A stretch of DNA of 45,920 bases from an uncultured Gammaproteobacteria bacterium. GTDB lineage: Bacteria > Patescibacteriota > Microgenomatia > Levybacterales > UBA12049. Shown one piece after another: positions 20,255 through 40,129 of the stretch. The translations under genes and the position numbers were made by a program. The number at the start of each line of letters is the position of its first letter. Positions within the stretch are counted from its first letter, which is position 1. The DNA is taken from positions 63,754 through 109,673 of the forward strand of contig CAYZZG010000001.1 in NCBI GenBank assembly GCA_964482825.1, given 5' to 3'. Under the pieces are notes generated by a model. It searched no databases, was not told the DNA's origin, and saw only the letters and a program-made list of their open reading frames with translations.

Positions 20255-20285
20255 GTATAGATTCTATTATTGTTTAATTATAATG

Positions 20286-20359
20286 TCGGGGGAACTGGTT
20301 CCGCCCCAGCGACCTCTCGCACCCCATGCGAGTGCTCTGTCTATCTGAGCTATCCCCCG
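20286..20359 (-). tRNA. tRNA-Pro (anticodon GGG), non-canonical D and T loops, no encoded CCA
   Basis: Hand-folded 74-nt cloverleaf: acceptor CGGGGGA/TCCCCCG, D stem GCTC/GAGC, anticodon stem CTCGC/GCGAG, loop AT-GGG-GT, T stem GCTGG/CCAGT. Confidence 0.8.
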
Positions 20360-20387
20360 TTTCGAAAAAAAATACAAATTTTCCTTC

Positions 20388-20424: not shown

Positions 20425-21525
20425 ATGGCACGGCATAAGGGAAACTCAGAACCAAAACAATCGCACGGTCCTCAAACAGACGCTTCACAAAAACTCAACG
20501 CAATCAAAATGGCAATGGAGCAAATCCAGCAGCAATATGGCAGTGGGTCAATTATGAAATTCGGTGATGCTGCGCAAAAACTGGCTGTTGAAGTAATCCC
20601 AACAGGAGCATTTCCGCTTGATTTGGCGTTAGGTGTTGGAGGATTGCCTCGTGGAAGGATCATCGAAATTTTTGGTCCGGAAGCATCTGGTAAAACAACC
20701 CTTTGTTTATCGGTAATTTCCGAAGCGCAAAAAAAAGGCGGTGTGGCGGCGTTTATTGACGCAGAACATGCACTAGATCCCATGTGGGCGCAAATTATTG
20801 GAGTGAAGATTGAGGATTTGCTTATTTCGCAACCAGACACAGGAGAACAGGCATTAGAAATTGCCGAACATCTGATTCGAAGTGGCGGGATAGACATATT
20901 AGTTATCGATTCTGTTGCTGCACTGGTTCCACGGGCCGAAATAGAAGGAGAGATGGGAGATGCGATGGTGGGAGTGCAAGCAAGACTTATGTCGCAAGCG
21001 CTTCGAAAACTCACAGGAGTAGTTTCGAAGAGTAAAACAATTGTAATCTTTACCAATCAGCTTCGCCAAAAAATCGGCGTGATGTTTGGTAATCCAGAAA
21101 CGACCACCGGAGGTTTAGCTCTAAAGTTCTATTCCTCTATTCGTATTGATGTTCGGAGAATAGAAACTCTTAAAGATGGTGATAAAGCCATTGGTAACAG
21201 AGTGCGGGCAAAAATTGTCAAAAATAAAGTTGCGCCGCCATTTAGAGTTGCCGAATTTGACGTGATGGGAGATAGCGGTATTTCCAAAGAAGGGGGAATT
21301 TTGGACGTTGGTATCGAGACAGGCGTTATTCAAAAAAGCGGTGCATTTTTGCGATACGGCGACACAATGCTTGGACAAGGAAGAGAAGCGGCAAAAATGT
21401 TTCTTAAAGAAAAATCGGCACTAGCTCATAAAATCATCGAAGAAATCCTAAAGAAAAATAAAACCAGCGGTACTCCTTTGGCTGTTGGCGTTGAAGAAAC
21501 ACAGGAATCCACTCAAGATCTATAA
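20425..21525 (+). CDS. recA: recombinase RecA
   Basis: 366 aa, [10 protein letters not shown] Walker [17 protein letters not shown] motifs. Confidence 0.97.
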
Positions 21526-21533
21526 ATTTCCCC

Positions 21534-21564
21534 TTGACACCCGACTATATAGTCTACTATAGTA
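21534..21564 (+). promoter_or_regulatory. lexA promoter with two abutting perfect palindromes (candidate operator)
   Basis: TTGACA 21534-21539, TATAGT 21558-21563. GACTATATAGTC 21543-21554 and TACTATAGTA 21555-21564. Confidence 0.5.
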
Positions 21565-21569
21565 GTTGT

Positions 21570-22211
21570 ATGAATAAATCTGTTCTCACCGAGAGACAAA
21601 AACAGCTTCTTGATGTGATATATAAATATATCAAAGACACGGGGTATCCTCCTTCTTTTGAAGAAATGAAAAACAGCCTTGGTGTGGTTTCTAACCAATC
21701 AGTAATAGATTTATTAATGAAACTTGAAGGTCAAAAACTTATAAAGCGCAGTGGTTCTCAAGCCAGAGGAATAGTTATTCTACCATTGGGTTATGAGATT
21801 TTAGGACATCTTCTACAGATACCATTTTTAGGTGTTAGCCACGCCGGTTCTCCTACTGTACCATTCGAAATACAGGGAGAATGGCAACAGCTTTCACCTC
21901 AGGTTGCAAAACTTGAAGATGATGTATTTATTCTTCGGGTTTCCGGAGATTCAATGATTAATGCCGGCATCGATGATGGAAATAAAGTTTTGGTAAGAGC
22001 CCAAAAGGAATTTTCCTCCGGAGATATAGTTTTAGCTGATGTTGACGGAGAAACTACCATCAAAAGATTTATTTCAGAAGATAAACCACCGTATTTGTAC
22101 TTAAAACCTGAAAACCCCAATCATGAAATTGTTTACTTTACCGAGAAAGTAACATTAAAGGGTAAAGTCATATCAATCCTTAAGAAAGGACAATGGATGC
22201 CTGTATCTTAA
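21570..22211 (+). CDS. lexA: LexA repressor
   Basis: wHTH N-terminus (LTERQKQLLDVI), HAG-SP cleavage-site context, SGDSM Ser and TIKRF Lys. ATG 21570 lies downstream of the promoter. Confidence 0.92.
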   Translation: MNKSVLTERQKQLLDVIYKYIKDTGYPPSFEEMKNSLGVVSNQSVIDLLMKLEGQKLIKRSGSQARGIVILPLGYEILGHLLQIPFLGVSHAGSPTVPFEIQGEWQQLSPQVAKLEDDVFILRVSGDSMINAGIDDGNKVLVRAQKEFSSGDIVLADVDGETTIKRFISEDKPPYLYLKPENPNHEIVYFTEKVTLKGKVISILKKGQWMPVS

Positions 22212-22217
22212 ATTAAA

Positions 22218-22477
22218 ATGCCAACAGTAAAACTCAATAAATCAGAAGAAATAATTGGCAAGATTTTCAAAGGTCAAGAATTGGTTATAAATTAAATAGA
22301 CTCTACGGTTACTCATTCGACCGTATCGAAACTGAAAAAAGCATCCAATTTGGAACAGAAGTTCACGCGAAAAGAGCGGATATTGTTATCTTCAAAGAAG
22401 ATAAAATCACCCCCTACATTATCTTTGAAACTAAGGAGCCAAACGCCAAAAAGGCAGAAGAGCAACTAAAAACCTAC
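22218..22477 (+). pseudogene. HsdR_N / PD-(D/E)XK nuclease-like N-terminal region of the methyltransferase gene, out of frame with its own ATG
   Basis: ATG 22218 frame (MPTVKLNKSEEIIGKIFKGQELVIN) stops at 22293-22295. The methyltransferase frame is open from 22241 and encodes ...YGYSFDRIETEK...RADIVIF...PYIIFETKEP...LKTY with no ATG before 22478. Confidence 0.6.
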
Positions 22478-24013
22478 ATGGCAGGTGAGTGGGCAGAAGG
22501 CGGTGTATGGTCAAATGGTATTCAGAAATTTATTCTTTACCGGCCTTTTCCCAAGGAATACGTTACTACTTTTCCAGACATCCCAAAAGTTGACCAGACA
22601 TGGGATGATTTATTTGAGGAAAAGCTTACCTATAAATCTTTAAATAAAAACTTTGACCTAGCTTTTATTATAGAGCGCCTAGAAGAATTGGTTTTGGCCC
22701 AATCCGGAGAAACTGTTTTTGATGAAGTTTTCAAACTCCTATACGCCAAACTTTACGATGAGGATCAGGCAAAAAACTATCGCGCTAATGAAGAAGTTAT
22801 TTTTAAGCAATATAAAGACCCAAAAAAGACATATCAAGTTATAAATGATACACTTTTTAAGTCCTCGATCGCAAAATGGCCAAATATTTTCAATCCGTTG
22901 GACAAAATCGAGCTTTCTCCCGACCAACTGCAAGTTTGTATACCACTTTTACAAACAATAAAACTTTTTGGAACTGGTAGAGAAGAACTTGAGATTGTAG
23001 ATCGTGCTTTTGAACACCTTATAACAGAAGTTTCAAAAGGGCAAAAAGGCCAATATTTTACTCCAAGAAATGTTGTTAAGATGTGCATCCAAATGCTTAA
23101 TCCTAAGCAAGATGAATTTGTTTTAGATCCTGCTTGCGGCTCAGGAGGATTCTTGCTCCATACCATGTATTATGCTTGGGATAATTATCTTGCCAATGTT
23201 TCACAAGAGGCAAGGAAAGAGTATGCAGGTAAATATTTATTCGGTATAGATTTTGACGATAAGATGCGCAAAATTTCCCAGGCTCTTATGTTGATTGCAG
23301 GAGATGGTAAACACCATATTTTTAGGAGGAATTCTTTGGATGCAAGAGATTGGGTGGGAGATAGCGCAGAAGAGGCTCGGGTTGAATTAAAGTCACTGCT
23401 TAGGGATTTTTCTACTCCATTTCGCTATTTAAATTTTGATGTTCTTCTGACAAATCCTCCATTTGCCGGTGAGATTACTGATGGGGGGCTTCTTAGGCAA
23501 TACGAATTTGCCAAGAAAAATGGAAAATTAAAATCAAAGATGGAAAGACACCTTCTTTTTATAGAACGCTCTCTTGATGCAATAAAACCTGGAGGCAGGG
23601 TGGCTATTGTACTTCCTCAGGGAGTTTTTAATAACACTAATATGGAATTTGTGCGTCTGTGGTTATTTAATAAAGCCAGAATTTTAGCAGTTGTTGGCCT
23701 GCATGGAAATACCTTCAAACTCCCAGCTCCGGCTAAAGGAACTGGAACAAAAACTTCTGTATTATTCTTGCAAAAATGGGATGAGAAAGACTTGTCCGCC
23801 GAAGCTTCAGCGAAGGCGGATTACCCAATTTTTATGGCAGTTTCCAAAAAAGGAGGAAAAGATAATGCCGGTGATTATGTTTATAAAAAAGATGCAAACG
23901 GTAATTATGTCCACGACTCCCGCGGCCGCAAAGTCCTAGATCATGACCTCGACCAAATCGCCAACAAATTTATAGAATTTGCCAAAGGGCAAGGATTTAA
24001 TTTTTGGAGGTAA
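22478..24013 (+). CDS. N6-adenine DNA methyltransferase (gamma class, HsdM/BcgI-A-like)
   Basis: LDPACGSGGFL (motif I) and LTNPPFAG (motif IV). Minimal ORF from the first in-frame ATG. Confidence 0.9.
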   Translation: MAGEWAEGGVWSNGIQKFILYRPFPKEYVTTFPDIPKVDQTWDDLFEEKLTYKSLNKNFDLAFIIERLEELVLAQSGETVFDEVFKLLYAKLYDEDQAKNYRANEEVIFKQYKDPKKTYQVINDTLFKSSIAKWPNIFNPLDKIELSPDQLQVCIPLLQTIKLFGTGREELEIVDRAFEHLITEVSKGQKGQYFTPRNVVKMCIQMLNPKQDEFVLDPACGSGGFLLHTMYYAWDNYLANVSQEARKEYAGKYLFGIDFDDKMRKISQALMLIAGDGKHHIFRRNSLDARDWVGDSAEEARVELKSLLRDFSTPFRYLNFDVLLTNPPFAGEITDGGLLRQYEFAKKNGKLKSKMERHLLFIERSLDAIKPGGRVAIVLPQGVFNNTNMEFVRLWLFNKARILAVVGLHGNTFKLPAPAKGTGTKTSVLFLQKWDEKDLSAEASAKADYPIFMAVSKKGGKDNAGDYVYKKDANGNYVHDSRGRKVLDHDLDQIANKFIEFAKGQGFNFWR

Positions 24014-24015
24014 AA

Positions 24016-24576
24016 ATGTGTAATGACAACATAGCATTTTTAAGCGTTAGACCCTGGACAGAAGTGTTTACCGCGGTTGGAACGGTAAGTGCCACTATAG
24101 TGGCTTTGGGCATAGCAATCAAAAATGCAAACGATCTCAAAAGAGAAAAGTTTTCAGGGATAAGCATAATTGACATAAACAAACTTGCAGTAGCAACATT
24201 AGAGAATAATGCGAAGATTGATGTGTATGTATTGATCGAAAAGTGTCTTCTGACTGATGGTCAAAACAAAAAAGATTCTCTTACGTACTTAACAACTAGT
24301 AACGAGAAATTGAGGAAAGAGGTCAAAAAAATCAAAGATTGGAAAACAATCTCAAAATACAGTCTTAACTCACAAGAAAAAGTTCAATTTCACTTTTCAG
24401 ATATTGTTAGTGAAAATGTATATGCTACTTTTGTTGCTTTGAAAATTGTGATCGATGATAAAAAAACCAGATACTATGTATTAAGGTTTACTGGAAATAA
24501 AGCTACAGAATCAGATGTGATGCTATTTGCCCACCCAATGAAGCAATGGGTAATAGCGTTTTCCTTCGAGGAGTAA
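24016..24576 (+). CDS. hypothetical protein with one N-terminal TM helix, between methyltransferase and S genes
   Basis: GGAGG 24006-24010 then ATG 24016. TM segment VFTAVGTVSATIVALGIAI. No recognisable motif. Confidence 0.6.
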   Translation: MCNDNIAFLSVRPWTEVFTAVGTVSATIVALGIAIKNANDLKREKFSGISIIDINKLAVATLENNAKIDVYVLIEKCLLTDGQNKKDSLTYLTTSNEKLRKEVKKIKDWKTISKYSLNSQEKVQFHFSDIVSENVYATFVALKIVIDDKKTRYYVLRFTGNKATESDVMLFAHPMKQWVIAFSFEE

Positions 24577-24581
24577 TATAT

Positions 24582-25931
24582 ATGAATTTTTCTATCATCC
24601 AAAAATCTCAACTTGAAGAAGCCCATCGACTGGACGCTGAATATTATCAGCCAGAATATTTTATAGATTTTTCAAAAGGGAAATGGTTACCCATCGGCGA
24701 AGCTTTGGAAGTTTGCCAATACGGTATCTCCCAAGCAATGAATGAAGATGGTATAGGTTATCCGATTCTCAGAATGGATGATATAAAAGATGCGTATTTA
24801 GTCGATGACGAGATCAAATATGTAGAAATTGCAGATTCTATTTTCAACCAGTATAAATTATTAGTTAATGATGTCTTATTTAATCGTGTAAATTCAGAAG
24901 AATTTGTGGGTAGGACTGGAATATTTAAGATTGGTGTCAATTTTGTTTTTGCGTCATATCTAATCAGACTTAGAATTAGGCAGGACGCCAACATTTTACC
25001 AGACTATCTAAACATTTTTCTTAATTCTTCGTATGGACTTAAACAAATAAGAAAATTTAGAAGACGTGCAGTAAATCAGGCTAATGTAAATGCAGAAGAG
25101 CTAAAACAAATAAAAATTTCTATTTTGCCACCGGAAGTTCAAGAAGAAATTAGTAAATTAGCAAACGAATCATGGGAACAAATAAAACAGTCAAAGTCTT
25201 TTTATCAGCAAGCTGAAGAGTTGCTTTTGCAGGAGTTGGAACTTAAAGATTTTCAAGTTGATGATGACTTGAGTTTTGTAGTTAATCTTTCAGATGTAAA
25301 GTCTGCAAACCGCATCGATGCAGATTATTTCCAGCCGAAATTTGAGAAACTAATATCAGAAATTAAAAAGAAAATTGCAAAACGACTGGAGGAATTTATT
25401 GCAAGTTACTCAACAGGTTTTCCTTTCAAAAGCGATAATTATTTAGAAGAAGGGATACCTTTAATCAGGATAAACAATATTAAAAAGGGATATCTGGATT
25501 TAAATGATACTACTTTTTTAAGTAATCGAGACCACATGCTTTCCCTAAAAGATATAGCAAAAACGGGAGATATCGTTTTATCGATGTCTGGAACAATTGG
25601 TATGTCCGCAGTAATTCCAGTAGATGTACCTAAATGTAGTGTAAATCAGCGAATATTGAGATTTAGTTCTAAAAATATAGATAAAGATTATATAGTCTTG
25701 GTTTTAAATTCGATAGTTGGTTTCTATCAATTAGAAAGAATCGGGACTGGCGGAGTACAAACCAATATTAGTTATAGGGATATACAAAATATTTTAATTC
25801 CAGTTTTGCCAAGGGAAATTCAGGAAAAAATTGGGGAGTTGGTGAGGAAGTCACATGAAGCAAGAAAGAAATCAAAAGAGCTTTTAGAAGAGGCAAAAGG
25901 GAAAGTTGAAGAGATGATTGAGCATGAATGA
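24582..25931 (+). CDS. hsdS: restriction-modification specificity subunit (HsdS-like, two target-recognition domains)
   Basis: Duplicated RLDAEYYQPEY / RIDADYFQPKF half-starts and two coiled-coil conserved regions. GAGGAG precedes ATG 24582. Confidence 0.88.
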   Translation: MNFSIIQKSQLEEAHRLDAEYYQPEYFIDFSKGKWLPIGEALEVCQYGISQAMNEDGIGYPILRMDDIKDAYLVDDEIKYVEIADSIFNQYKLLVNDVLFNRVNSEEFVGRTGIFKIGVNFVFASYLIRLRIRQDANILPDYLNIFLNSSYGLKQIRKFRRRAVNQANVNAEELKQIKISILPPEVQEEISKLANESWEQIKQSKSFYQQAEELLLQELELKDFQVDDDLSFVVNLSDVKSANRIDADYFQPKFEKLISEIKKKIAKRLEEFIASYSTGFPFKSDNYLEEGIPLIRINNIKKGYLDLNDTTFLSNRDHMLSLKDIAKTGDIVLSMSGTIGMSAVIPVDVPKCSVNQRILRFSSKNIDKDYIVLVLNSIVGFYQLERIGTGGVQTNISYRDIQNILIPVLPREIQEKIGELVRKSHEARKKSKELLEEAKGKVEEMIEHE

Positions 25932-26415
25932 GTCTGAAAAATACTACAATAAAGCTCTTCGGTATCTCTCATATCGTCCTCGAAGCGAAAAAGAAATAAG
26001 AGAGAAACTCACAAGAACTAGGAGTAGAGAGAAAGTAGAAAGAGTAGATAAGGTAATTGATCAAATAATCAATAAACTAAAAGAACAAAATCTGATTAAC
26101 GATGAAGAATTTGCCAGGTGGTGGGTTGAACAGCGGACAACATTTCGGCCAAAAGGAATACGGTTAATCAAGCTCGAGTTAAAACAAAAAGGAATCAGCC
26201 CAGATATAATAGAGGTAACAATTAACAGTTCACAATTAACAATTAACAAAGAAACAGAAAGGGCGAAAAAACTGATTCAGAAAAAAATAGAGCGATACAG
26301 AAGCTTGCCAAAAAGGGAACGGAATCAAAAACTAGGATTATTTCTACAGCGAAGAGGATTTGATTTTGAGACTATCAAGAAGAGCATTGACGAACTGTTT
26401 AGAGAAGGAGTATAA
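25924..26415 (+). CDS. recX: recombination regulator RecX
   Basis: YYNKALRYLSYRPRSEKEIREKL RecX-type N-terminus. ATG 25924 overlaps the hsdS stop (ATGAATGA). TTG 25918 is an alternative. Confidence 0.88.
   Translation: MNESEKYYNKALRYLSYRPRSEKEIREKLTRTRSREKVERVDKVIDQIINKLKEQNLINDEEFARWWVEQRTTFRPKGIRLIKLELKQKGISPDIIEVTINSSQLTINKETERAKKLIQKKIERYRSLPKRERNQKLGLFLQRRGFDFETIKKSIDELFREGV
26215..26251 (+). repeat. in-frame CAATTAAC/CAGTT repeat module inside recX (encodes EVTINSSQLTINK)
   Basis: gtaacaattaacagttcacaattaacaattaacaaag. Confidence 0.8.
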
Positions 26416-26416
26416 T
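26387..26416 (+). promoter_or_regulatory. sigma70-like promoter at the recX 3' end
   Basis: TTGACG 26387-26392, 18-nt spacer, TATAAT 26411-26416. Confidence 0.45.
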
Positions 26417-26497
26417 TATAAAAAGACAAAGAAGGGTAGGTCTATTTCAGTTTGGTTTATGACTAAGACAATCCCTACTGTATTTAGAACACTGTAA

Positions 26498-26528
26498 ACA
26501 CGCATGAGAGCGTGTGTTTCTTCTTTTG
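26498..26528 (+). terminator. terminator-like hairpin plus T-rich tract upstream of rny
   Basis: ACACGC-atgaga-GCGTGT 26498-26515, then GTTTCTTCTTTTG. Confidence 0.5.
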
Positions 26529-26546: not shown

Positions 26547-27815
26547 ATGACATCACAAACACAAGATCTTATAGAACTTGAGAAAAAGCTTCTCGAGAAA
26601 CAGGAAAAAATTGAAAAAGAGCAGGAAAAGCTGGAGGAGGAAAAAGAAAAGATTAATGAACTTGCTGAAGAATACAGCAAAAAGCTACAAAAAGTGGCTG
26701 GTCTAACCGCGGAAGAAGCAAAAGAAGAACTCCTTAAAGAAGTAGAACAAAAAGAAGCTCAAACAATCGCCCGCCTTATTAAAGAAAGGGAAGAAGAAGC
26801 AAAACGAACCGCCGATAAAAAGGCTCAAGAAATTCTAGTTGATAGCATGCGTCATGGAGCGCTCAATTACATTGCCGAATACACAGTTTCCATAGTTAAG
26901 GTTGAGGACGAAGAAATGAAGGGTCGGATTATCGGAAAGGAAGGTCGCAATATCCGCGCATTTGAGCAGGCAACTGGCGTTGATGTTGATCTTGATGAAG
27001 AAGGCATTATTCGCCTTTCTTCTTTTGATCAGGTGCGCCGGGAAGTAGCCAGACGTTCTTTGGAAAAACTTCTCAAAGACACCCGCATTCAGCCATTTCG
27101 CATAGAAGAAATCGTTGAACAGACTAAAAAAGAGGTGGAAAAAATTATGTTAGAGGCAGGTGAATGGCTGGCCCATGAAGCAGGAGTATTTAATCTTCCT
27201 GTTGATCTGCTTTCTATTTTAGGCCGTTTTAAGTTCCGTACCTCATACGGTCAAAATCTGGTTGTTCATACTCTCGAGGAAACAAAAATAGGCATACATA
27301 TTGCATCAGAAATTGGCGCTGATGCAAATATTGTTCGTCTTGGCTGTTTGTTTCATGATATTGGAAAGGTCGTTGAGGGAGAAGGAAGTCATGTGAAACT
27401 TGGCGTTGAACTACTAAAGAAATTTAATATTCCAGAGGCAATTATTAATTGTGTCGCGGAGCACCATGAAGATAAGCCATTTTCATCCATAGAATCAGTT
27501 ATAGTTGCTATATCAGACGCAATCTCCGGTGCTCGTCCTGGAGCGCGCTATGAAGATTTTGAGGAATATGTCAAGCGATTAACTGCTATTGAAGAAATTG
27601 CCAAAAGGTATGATGGTGTTAGTGATGCGTACGCATTTGAGGCAGGACGAGAAATCCGTGTGATTATTAATCCTTCAAGAGTCGATGATTCTCAAACAAC
27701 AATCATTGCCAATAAGATTCGTGAGGAGGTAAGTAAAACTTTGGCAATTCCAGGTGAGGTTAAAGTTACCGCCATTCGCGAATTCCGCGCGGTTTCTTCG
27801 GAGTCAGCAGTTTAA
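26547..27815 (+). CDS. rny: ribonuclease Y (no N-terminal TM helix)
   Basis: Coiled-coil N-terminus, KH domain (GRIIGKEGRNIR), HD domain (LFHDIGK...AEHHED). Confidence 0.92.
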   Translation: MTSQTQDLIELEKKLLEKQEKIEKEQEKLEEEKEKINELAEEYSKKLQKVAGLTAEEAKEELLKEVEQKEAQTIARLIKEREEEAKRTADKKAQEILVDSMRHGALNYIAEYTVSIVKVEDEEMKGRIIGKEGRNIRAFEQATGVDVDLDEEGIIRLSSFDQVRREVARRSLEKLLKDTRIQPFRIEEIVEQTKKEVEKIMLEAGEWLAHEAGVFNLPVDLLSILGRFKFRTSYGQNLVVHTLEETKIGIHIASEIGADANIVRLGCLFHDIGKVVEGEGSHVKLGVELLKKFNIPEAIINCVAEHHEDKPFSSIESVIVAISDAISGARPGARYEDFEEYVKRLTAIEEIAKRYDGVSDAYAFEAGREIRVIINPSRVDDSQTTIIANKIREEVSKTLAIPGEVKVTAIREFRAVSSESAV

Positions 27816-27946: not shown

Positions 27947-28225
27947 GTGAATTTGACAAAAAAAGATCTAATTGATCTGGTTGCCAAGAAAGCAAATCTT
28001 ACCAATAAAGCTGCGCGAGATGCGGTTGGTTCATTTCTAAATGCCATCCGTGACTCGCTAAAACGAGGAGAGAAAGTAGTAATAACCGGATTTGGTACCT
28101 TTAGCGTTCGCAGTCGCGCATCACGGCCTGGACGAAATCCAAAGACCGGTGAAAAAATTACTATCGCAGCAAGAAAAGCGCCTGGATTCACACCGGGCAA
28201 AACCTTAAAAAAGGTAGTGCGATAA
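27947..28225 (+). CDS. hup: DNA-binding protein HU
   Basis: GTG start after GGGAGGGGG. 92 aa, GFGTFSVRSRASRPGRNPKTGEKI motif. Confidence 0.93.
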   Translation: MNLTKKDLIDLVAKKANLTNKAARDAVGSFLNAIRDSLKRGEKVVITGFGTFSVRSRASRPGRNPKTGEKITIAARKAPGFTPGKTLKKVVR

Positions 28226-39097: not shown

Positions 39098-40129
39098 TCA
39101 TTGGCCGTTGGGGATGGTTTTTGAAGTTGGTTCTTCCAAACTTTTTGTGGTATTCAATTTATGGCCTAATTGTGTAAAGCCGGTTGAGACATTGTGAAAC
39201 TGTGAGGAAGCGTTGGTCAGATGTTTGCCTAAAATTGCCATATTTTCGTCTACCTTTTCATAATCTAGTTGTAAAGCACGTAGTAAACGAAAGACTTCTT
39301 TTGATTGTTCTTCGATCTTCTTCCCTTCAAAAGAAAGTAAAATAGTTTGCAAATGCATGTAAAGCGTGGCTGGAGATACAATATATACTCTGGCGCGTCT
39401 GGCATAGTCTGTAAGTTCGGTAAGATTAATTACTTCATAATATACAGATTCACTGGGTACATACATCAGGGCAAAATCCATAGTGCCTTCGTCCGGCAAA
39501 ATATATTTTTTGGCAATTGCGTCAATATGTTTTTTAACATCACGGACAAACTCTTTTTGCAAAGAGATATGTTCATCTTGCGACTTACTTTTCGACATTT
39601 TCTGAAAATTTTCCATGGGAAATTTTGCATCAATAGGTAAAATGCCGGCATCTGTTTTTATGGCAGCATCAACCCGTTCACCGGATTTAAACTGATACTG
39701 TAAGTGAAAACTTTGTTTTGGAAACATTTGGGAAATTAAATCTTTTAAAACATGCTCGCCAATATTGCCTCTAAGTTTTGGGCTTTTAAGAAATTCCTGA
39801 AGTTCTCTCATGCTTCTACCAATCTCGCTCATTTGTCCTACCTCTTTTCCGACATCGCGAATAACGGCGGCTGCCCTATCCAGCCGCTCATTAAGTTGTT
39901 TTGAATTTTCCTGCAGTGTTTTTACCATGTCAGTTGATGAGGAACGTAGCGCTTCGTTAAGGGTTTTATTCGTTATCTCAAGTGAGCTCTGCATTGTTTT
40001 TAACCACTCAAGTAAAGGAGTATTGTCTTTTGTTTTTTGCAGTTCTGAGAATTTACGATTAAATAAATAGATAAAAATAACGAAGCACCCAACAATAAGA
40101 GTAATAGCAATAAACAGGTCGGATTGCAT
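39098..40129 (-). CDS. rmuC: DNA recombination protein RmuC
   Basis: 343 aa, N-terminal TM, coiled coil, C-terminal RmuC-type domain (VDAAIK...LPIDAKFP...YVPSE). Confidence 0.88.
   Translation of the reverse strand: MQSDLFIAITLIVGCFVIFIYLFNRKFSELQKTKDNTPLLEWLKTMQSSLEITNKTLNEALRSSSTDMVKTLQENSKQLNERLDRAAAVIRDVGKEVGQMSEIGRSMRELQEFLKSPKLRGNIGEHVLKDLISQMFPKQSFHLQYQFKSGERVDAAIKTDAGILPIDAKFPMENFQKMSKSKSQDEHISLQKEFVRDVKKHIDAIAKKYILPDEGTMDFALMYVPSESVYYEVINLTELTDYARRARVYIVSPATLYMHLQTILLSFEGKKIEEQSKEVFRLLRALQLDYEKVDENMAILGKHLTNASSQFHNVSTGFTQLGHKLNTTKSLEEPTSKTIPNGQ

Follow-up and report, generated by a model that had tools for sequence, protein, structure and literature searches.

A putative LexA-controlled restriction-modification operon, headed by lexA and nested between recA and recX in a Patescibacteria genome

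Overview

We analyzed a 45,920-nt stretch of DNA (hereafter the window; positions 63,754–109,673 of contig CAYZZG010000001.1, GenBank assembly GCA_964482825.1) from a genome placed by GTDB in the Patescibacteriota, order Levybacterales. Six consecutive genes in it are the subject of this report: recA, lexA, a gene for a nuclease-methyltransferase (M; methyltransferase is abbreviated MTase), an open reading frame (ORF) without any family match (ORF-X), a specificity (S) subunit gene and recX. In our reading, lexA heads a LexA-repressed, RecA-inducible operon that carries a restriction-modification (RM) system and an accessory gene; in this genome, recX has been appended to the operon and the enzyme gene has been freshly broken. 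We give this reading, which is built from sequence comparisons, a probability of about 0.7. The comparisons establish the gene identities, the junctions, the deletion and the conservation of both the arrangement and the operator-like palindrome; joint transcription, binding by LexA, inducibility and the enzyme activities are predictions drawn from them.

Under this model, transcription would start at a sigma-70-type promoter (21534–21563) with a LexA operator in its spacer (21540–21555). The transcript would run through lexA, the nuclease-MTase gene, ORF-X, the S gene and recX, with a probable end at a hairpin at 26496–26519. LexA would keep the operon at a basal level. RecA activated by DNA damage, phage replication or self-restriction would trigger LexA self-cleavage, upon which lexA, the RM enzyme, the gene in the slot between M and S, and recX would all be expressed more, together. 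The enzyme would act as a two-component system of the BcgI/BsaXI type, with no translocase.

Conservation of the lexA-headed unit

Gene order. The ORF listing and Pfam matches confirm the six co-oriented genes named in a preliminary description of this DNA, all on the plus strand. lexA (21570–22211) encodes 213 aa from the ATG at 21570, with Pfam domains LexA_DNA_bind and Peptidase_S24. The body of the nuclease-MTase gene (22296–24013) encodes a PD-(D/E)xK nuclease domain (HSDR_N_2, E = 6e-13) and a gamma-class N6-adenine MTase domain (N6_Mtase, E = 1e-32). ORF-X (24016–24576) follows, and then the S gene (24582–25931), whose 449-aa product has an internal duplication, two target recognition domains (TRDs) and two Methylase_S matches (PADLOC Specificity_I, E = 6e-52). 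The left neighbour of this unit is recA (20425–21525; Pfam RecA, E = 1.6e-129) and the right neighbour is recX (25924–26415; RecX_HTH1, RecX_HTH2 and RecX_HTH3). Successive genes from lexA to S are 2–6 nt apart. Read directly from the sequence, the M stop (TAA, 24011–24013) is followed 2 nt later by the ATG at 24016, the ORF-X stop (TAA, 24574–24576) is followed 5 nt later by the ATG at 24582, and the S stop and recX start share 8 nt (ATGAATGA, 25924–25931), all three junctions as first described. The lexA stop at 22211 also stands; the ATG at 22218, previously taken as the MTase start, opens only 25 codons in another frame.

Relatives. Species-representative genomes were scanned with a LexA alignment, and the window proteins were mapped onto the resulting lexA loci by tblastn (individual loci carry L numbers below). 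The unit is widespread in Patescibacteria. Of 67 species-level loci where the sequence continues for at least 2.2 kb past lexA, 51 have a full-length gene for the window-type MTase directly 3' of lexA, and in several more the contig ends within the MTase gene. In the first contigs checked for close MTase homologues, lexA was immediately upstream every time and the farther neighbours differed. Across 56 loci, the median distance from the lexA stop to the M start is 4.5 nt, and in 52 of them it does not exceed 25 nt; M always lies on the strand of lexA. M starts that lie 1–10 nt past the lexA stop suggest translational coupling. S follows M after 0–2.7 kb, and the flanks of the unit hold unrelated genes with housekeeping roles. 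The short gaps, the shared strand in 56 loci and the conserved promoter palindrome described below strongly support the co-transcription of lexA and the RM genes from a LexA-controlled promoter that was proposed earlier.

One locus has an unusually long lexA–MTase spacer, which holds about 4.5 tandem 21-nt units (TTCGAAGAAAAGCTTTGCTTA; L003, 9962–10072); in the database protein P0009 these repeats are translated as additional N-terminal residues.

Accessory slot. The interval between M and S is a variable slot whose ORFs are nearly all co-stranded. Domains encoded there include NYN, DUF3800, Trypsin_2, an RnlA-toxin DNA-binding domain, AAA_21, DUF4145, PBECR3, AAA_15 and GIY-YIG, a set that looks like abortive-infection or defence cargo. 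ORF-X is the local occupant of the slot. It has no match in Pfam, NCBIfam or PADLOC. A word-indexed search returned no homologues and an exhaustive HMMER search returned 21 remote ones; the one homologue with informative context lies between the C-terminus of M and the S gene. An AlphaFold2 model of ORF-X (predicted local distance difference test, pLDDT, 89.5) has at its N-terminus a long helix, part of which is hydrophobic and plausibly anchors the protein in a membrane, and also an immunoglobulin (Ig)-like beta-sandwich; its fold matches are generic Ig-like ones, such as Asf1 and GH2 domains, at a template modelling score of about 0.3.

Nesting between recA and recX. The preliminary description placed the RM genes inside an older recA-lexA...recX operon. 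A free-standing module of MTase, ORF-X and S would then have inserted into that operon and fallen under LexA control by accident. The RM genes of the window do sit between lexA and recX, and recA and recX are classical partners. The relatives contradict this account. At none of 80 recA loci, found by scanning metagenome contigs with RecA, does a match to LexA, the MTase or S fall within 8 kb, and recA, recX and rny form a contiguous group: among the 66 loci that extend 700 nt or more past recA, recX is directly 3' of recA in 44 and 0.4–1.9 kb away in another 16, with rny after recX in most. Conversely, the lexA loci show a recA upstream in one case out of 49 and a recX after the S gene in one out of 43; L006 accounts for both. 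Since lexA is absent from all 80 recA loci, and the lexA–MTase pairs at 51 of 67 loci have unrelated outer neighbours, the inserted block is lexA together with the RM genes. The insertion between recA and recX is thus real, with lexA as part of the inserted piece, and we consider accidental capture of the RM genes alone very improbable.

The preferred reading accordingly involves two separate conserved blocks, as the synteny indicates: recA-recX-rny and lexA-M-slot-S. As in other recA-recX operons, an SOS-linked recX is present in the window; the difference is that the 4.4-kb lexA–RM unit parts it from recA, and that it is coupled by its 8-nt overlap to S instead of directly following recA. 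The nested arrangement occurs only in the window and in L006, where RecA is 76% identical, the same 8-nt S/recX overlap is found (ATGGGTGA) and the junction between the recA stop and the promoter is homologous. Inserts between recA and recX at other loci were considered as possible RM remnants and rejected, as those sampled hold unrelated genes.

Promoter and putative operator

The window LexA scores 145.8 bits with TIGR00498 (cut-off 110.95), passing the NCBI equivalog threshold, and its Ala92–Gly93 cleavage site, Ser128 and Lys165 are invariant in an alignment of relatives. E. coli LexA is cleaved between residues 84 and 85 and has its catalytic residues at 119 and 156, with the same spacing as in the window protein.

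The lexA promoter (TTGACA-N18-TATAGT, 21534–21563, plus strand) matches at 11 of 12 positions. Over the 8.6 kb scanned no promoter-like site ranks higher, which bears out its earlier identification, and about 80 related loci have the same layout in the same position upstream of lexA. The spacer between -35 and -10 holds the putative LexA operator CCCGACTATATAGTCT, with the core palindrome GACTATATAGTC (21540–21555). We compared the 90 nt upstream of lexA at 82 loci. The common layout is TTGAC(A/C), the palindrome CC(C/A)GA(C/A)(T/C)A-WW-T(A/G)GTCGGG, TA-AT, 6–9 nt and the ATG, and 76 of the 82 promoters fit a 20-nt palindrome consensus at 13 or more positions. The palindrome, of the type CCCGACTA-N2-TAGTCGGG, sits between -35 and -10; some loci carry GAACATAT as the left half-site. 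The half-site resembles the Gram-positive CGAAC-N4-GTTCG box. When the window is scanned with a matrix built from 75 related lexA promoters, 21540–21555 scores 25.8 bits and is the sole strong site, the second-best score being 11.6 bits. From this conservation we infer that LexA binds the palindrome. The -10 hexamer ends 6 nt before the lexA ATG in the window and 6–9 nt before it in most loci, so the lexA transcript is probably leaderless or nearly so.

The absence of a clear terminator within the operon, also noted earlier, is supported by a plus-strand scan for hairpins followed by T-runs. The strongest is at 26496–26519 (-9 kcal/mol, with a T-rich tail) and likely marks the transcript end. 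Two weak hairpins inside the MTase gene (23611–23625, -5.0 kcal/mol; 23978–23993, -6.2 kcal/mol) were considered as internal terminators and judged to be chance occurrences, the first of them encoding a conserved VLPQG motif. A promoter-like sequence, TTGACG-N18-TATAAT (11 of 12 positions), lies within the 3' end of recX at 26387–26416. The 26496–26519 hairpin falls between this sequence and the start of rny (26547–27815), the gene after recX, and so could be the operon terminator as well as part of an rny leader.

Three further observations concern lexA upstream regions. Just past the operator, a second perfect 12-nt palindrome, CTACTATAGTAG, covers the -10 region in the window (21555–21566); it is not present at the other loci, which have a GGGTATAAT-like sequence there instead. 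At other loci the exact DnaA-box consensus TTATCCACA is found just upstream of the lexA -35, in 26 of 82 cases, or 53 of 82 allowing up to one mismatch. It lies 43–77 nt (mostly 50–60) before the lexA ATG in loci ranging from L012 to L081 and is not found in the window; the background expectation is about 0.005 per region, and half of the exact copies in 1.3 Mb are at this position. Finally, several metagenome-assembled genomes titled 'uncultured Gammaproteobacteria bacterium' (L009, L011, L026, L028, L040, L045, L049, L066 and L075) have typical Patescibacteria-type lexA promoters and lexA–RM units, and their Gammaproteobacteria titles look unreliable.

Enzyme type and module replacement

Type IIB-like architecture. 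By its gene architecture, the enzyme is best filed as Type IIB-like (BcgI/BsaXI), short of a proven member, and would be expected to work like those enzymes. Its intact relatives share with them an N-terminal PD-(D/E)xK nuclease joined to a gamma-class N6-adenine MTase, a separate two-TRD S subunit and the lack of a translocase; the last two features hold for the window and the related loci. Intact relatives of M, 650–680 aa long, have HSDR_N_2 and N6_Mtase in a single protein, which in the window is split by a deletion. The top PDB sequence match of the MTase is RM.BsaXI (8w0p, E = 1.2e-26, over the MTase part). Identity is about 21%, confident only over the MTase part, and the BsaXI RM protein is about 270 aa longer. 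RM.BsaXI is also the top Foldseek match (E = 1.4e-13) of an AlphaFold2 model of a full-length MTase homologue (pLDDT 52.8). The system further differs from characterized Type IIB enzymes in that the window gene is disrupted. Type IIB enzymes cut on both sides of a bipartite site and depend on AdoMet, behaviour that for the present system is a prediction.

Replacement. Most lexA loci that lack the window-type MTase have another RM system in its place. At 14 of 16 such loci a different DNA MTase gene follows lexA, in most cases with a restriction endonuclease or S gene beside it. The gene after lexA is an N6_Mtase accompanied by S at L004, L028, L035 and L068, and an N6_N4_Mtase paired with an endonuclease of the HNH type at L005, TdeIII at L026 and BsaWI at L041. 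A C5 methylase with R.HinP1I is found at L046; two methylases at L024 and L071; an Eco57I-type MTase at L078; a D12-class fragment at L018; and an unassigned ORF and then an N6_N4_Mtase at L031. DUF3800 alone follows lexA at L010 and L047, and Bro-N follows it at L066, the only locus without anything related to RM.

Traces of the earlier occupant are left at several of these loci. Remnants of the C-terminus of the window-type S, each about 31 aa long and 75–87% identical, lie right after the new MTase/S module at L004 (13511–13603), L028 (9336–9431) and L068 (13690–13785), as footprints of module replacement. The start of the old MTase gene is retained at L025 (first 28 codons) and L026 (first 63 codons). 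The relics and the variety of systems indicate that the position after lexA has been repeatedly refilled with different RM types, always co-oriented with lexA. At L025 (1241–4261), two tandem lexA genes flank the relic (28 codons) of the Type IIB-like MTase. The second lexA has its own perfect operator (TGACTATATAGTCA) and heads an N6_N4 MTase and MvaI/BcnI endonuclease pair.

Homologues outside Patescibacteria. Nitrospirae, Deltaproteobacteria and other groups have homologues of about 70% identity, arranged as M-(DUF3800)-S modules. These have no lexA and lie in islands rich in toxin-antitoxin genes and transposases. A rough neighbour-joining tree groups them into a single derived clade within the diversity of the lexA-linked Patescibacteria sequences, a placement that suggests export of M-S modules from Patescibacteria to other phyla. 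Two Nitrospirae loci (L084 and L085) have DUF3800 between M and S. In the Deltaproteobacteria contigs (L087–L089), the DNA-repair-annotated gene RadC/UPF0758 takes the place of lexA, 4 nt ahead of the M-S pair, and DUF3800 comes after the pair.

Type I alternative. The window could instead hold an ordinary Type I M/S pair with hsdR elsewhere, at a post-lexA site that is a hotspot for RM genes with their own promoters and no link to LexA. The best PADLOC model for the MTase is labelled Type I methyltransferase (E = 4e-152), M and S match MTase_I and Specificity_I as HsdM- and HsdS-type proteins do, and the S protein is typical of Type I. Classical Type I loci may embed accessory genes, such as prrC in EcoprrI; likewise, the M-S slot here holds abortive-infection-like NYN, RnlA-like, AAA_21, DUF4145 and DUF3800 genes beside an N6_Mtase and a two-TRD S. 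A hotspot would also give the observed swapping of RM types, and the mobile, toxin-antitoxin-rich islands outside Patescibacteria fit one. However, classical Type I systems encode HsdR with M and S, and no HsdR/ResIII gene was found in the 45.9-kb window, in agreement with the preliminary description, nor did one turn up among the genes that follow S in relatives (43 genes, 43 loci). The only large helicase ORF in the window is an AddA-like gene with UvrD and PDDEXK_1 domains (33628–36543, minus strand). The HsdR-type nuclease domain, with invariant catalytic residues, is instead fused to M. The post-lexA gaps (median 4.5 nt) are too short for a promoter, and orientation always follows lexA, where a neutral hotspot should yield both orientations and spacers. 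We regard this alternative as unlikely. The fused nuclease domain, the separate S and BsaXI as best solved relative agree with the initial preference for Type IIB-like over classical Type I; the PADLOC label does not.

Other assignments. Two other assignments were rejected. The best NCBIfam models are MAD2 for the MTase (nearly full length) and MAD5 for S, and PADLOC mad2 and mad5 also match. The scores fall far below the curated cut-offs (MAD2, 294 against 720 bits; MAD5, 136 against 400), and gene content also does not fit a methylation-associated defence system (MADS): there are no other mad genes, and the neighbours are lexA, ORF-X, recX and rny. The epigenetic, phase-variable specificity switch suggested earlier is not borne out, as there is a single S gene with no recombinase or invertase and no long inverted S repeats.

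The disrupted enzyme gene

The window copy of the nuclease-MTase gene is not the intact gene starting at 22218 that was first described. The ATG at 22218 opens a 25-codon ORF ending at 22295, and its sequence MPTVKLNKSEEIIGKIFKGQEL matches the N-termini of intact relatives (MPTVKPNKSEEIIGEIFKDQEL...). It is a relic of the 5' end, comprising the ancestral start codon and 22 matching codons. About 57 residues (roughly 23–80) are then missing, and similarity resumes with ...YKLN.LYGY.FDRIETEK in a different frame. The deletion junction lies at 22284–22309. BLASTN against L092, whose protein is 90% identical, gives two segments with a net loss of 172 nt, and an offset count against L001 gives the same number; 172 is not a multiple of three, so the reading frame is shifted. 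The intact relatives used in the alignment are 650–659 aa long and 90% and 87% identical (P0001, 90%).

The MTase frame is open from 22241, and the first ATG, GTG or TTG in it is the ATG at 22478, from which the public contig annotation has a 511-aa product (P0003). Residues D112, E128 and K130 of the nuclease motif (P0001 numbering) are invariant in 30 homologues. The ATG at 22478 is 3' of this D...ExK motif, and the 511-aa product would lack these residues. Because of the out-of-frame deletion, restriction has most likely been lost in this genome; what could still be produced, starting at 22478, is no more than a 511-aa methyltransferase devoid of the nuclease motif.

The ratio of nonsynonymous to synonymous substitution rates (dN/dS) against L092 is 0.026 for the 57-codon stretch from the deletion to 22478 and 0.084 in the remainder of the gene. 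Low values on either side of 22478 indicate that the gene was under strong constraint until recently, and the disruption would thus be young, or else an assembly or population variant.

Weighing the evidence

Several points count against our reading. The case for co-transcription and LexA control is made from spacing, strand and conservation. Part of the operator conservation could reflect promoter elements, because GTCGGGTA adjoins the -10. The matrix scan finds no operator before recA in the window, and scans of 1.2 Mb of lexA flanks, covering about 20 kb per genome, give very few strong sites, none of them marking a clear further regulon gene, so that the data do not demonstrate a broader SOS regulon. 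The lexA loci compared are the 80 closest of at least 579 LexA relatives, a non-random sample, though one spanning many Patescibacteria lineages. The 172-nt deletion is known from a metagenome assembly. For the enzyme type, the PADLOC Type I label points the other way, and the fold match to BsaXI adds little because the MTase model is poor.

The scarcity of operators also bears on a different explanation, in which the LexA-like protein is mainly a dedicated, cleavable controller of the RM system, analogous to a C protein, and not the master SOS repressor, with the whole unit moving as a block. Strong operators are almost confined to lexA promoters, in the window and L006 the entire unit lies as one block with recA and recX on either side, and the tandem lexA genes of L025 each head RM genes or remnants. 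Yet LexA is above the equivalog cut-off, and its similarity tracks taxonomy (the closest relatives are Levy-, Davies- and Curtissbacteria) while the RM type is replaced. The M-S modules outside Patescibacteria have no lexA, and the limited reach of the operator scans leaves room for a wider regulon. We think a dedicated controller improbable, somewhat less so than the Type I alternative. The LexA-repressed RM operon remains our preferred explanation.

Neighbouring features

Neither Rfam (at gathering thresholds and at E <= 1) nor ARAGORN reported an RNA gene or riboswitch in the region. On the minus strand at 20283–20362, 80 nt fold, with an energy of -33.8 kcal/mol (z = -3.66), into a textbook tRNA-like cloverleaf that has a 7-bp acceptor stem, a D arm and a 5-bp T arm. 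The anticodon loop is AUGGGGU, with anticodon GGG (Pro). The T-loop, GGCGGAA, is not of the usual T-Psi-C type, and the structure was missed by ARAGORN and by Rfam even at E <= 1. Other genes for DNA transactions near the recA region are RmuC (39098–40129, minus strand) and the AddA-like gene mentioned above. An ORF at 27947–28225 (plus strand) appears by eye to encode an HU/IHF-type protein.

Significance

LexA-controlled operons with cargo are known, among them colicin operons and those of SOS-induced toxins. In these, as here, a LexA operator gates a potentially self-harmful nuclease plus protection. The differences are that here lexA itself heads the operon, that the cargo is a chromosomal RM system, and that the linkage has been kept across a radiation despite RM replacement. 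EcoKI restriction in E. coli is alleviated after DNA damage (PMC11109961), whereas more restriction enzyme on damage is predicted here; if the model is true, the response has the opposite sign.

In full-text searches we found no description of a lexA–RM operon in Patescibacteria; a 2017 paper on the Patescibacteria SOS network (Sanchez-Osuna, Barbe, Erill, Environ Microbiol 19:3465) may mention it. We put forward tentatively, at somewhat less than even odds, a broader proposal: that the head of an RM operon is the ancestral and nearly universal position of the SOS repressor gene in Patescibacteria; that this linkage has outlasted the repeated exchange of one RM system for a non-orthologous one (Type IIB-like, several Type II and 5-methylcytosine types); that the operon includes an abortive-infection-like slot; that restriction is inducible by DNA damage through RecA; and that the pattern is undescribed. 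The interest of the locus rests on this radiation-wide rule, as the window copy is itself decayed. Viewed across loci, the unit offers a natural series of module replacements and decays, of which the window is a fresh example of decay.

In practical terms, the position after lexA may guide searches for RM genes and accessory defence genes in Patescibacteria genomes, and the candidate LexA operator could be used for regulon reconstruction. RM systems and LexA-repressed operons are both textbook material; if the two are systematically joined across a huge radiation, most of it uncultured, defence there would be regulated by a new logic. If the proposal is true, restriction and the toxin-like slot genes would rise whenever RecA is activated, be it by phage replication, by damage or by the system's own mis-cutting, and restriction with its linked defence would be inducible across a whole radiation that largely lacks CRISPR.

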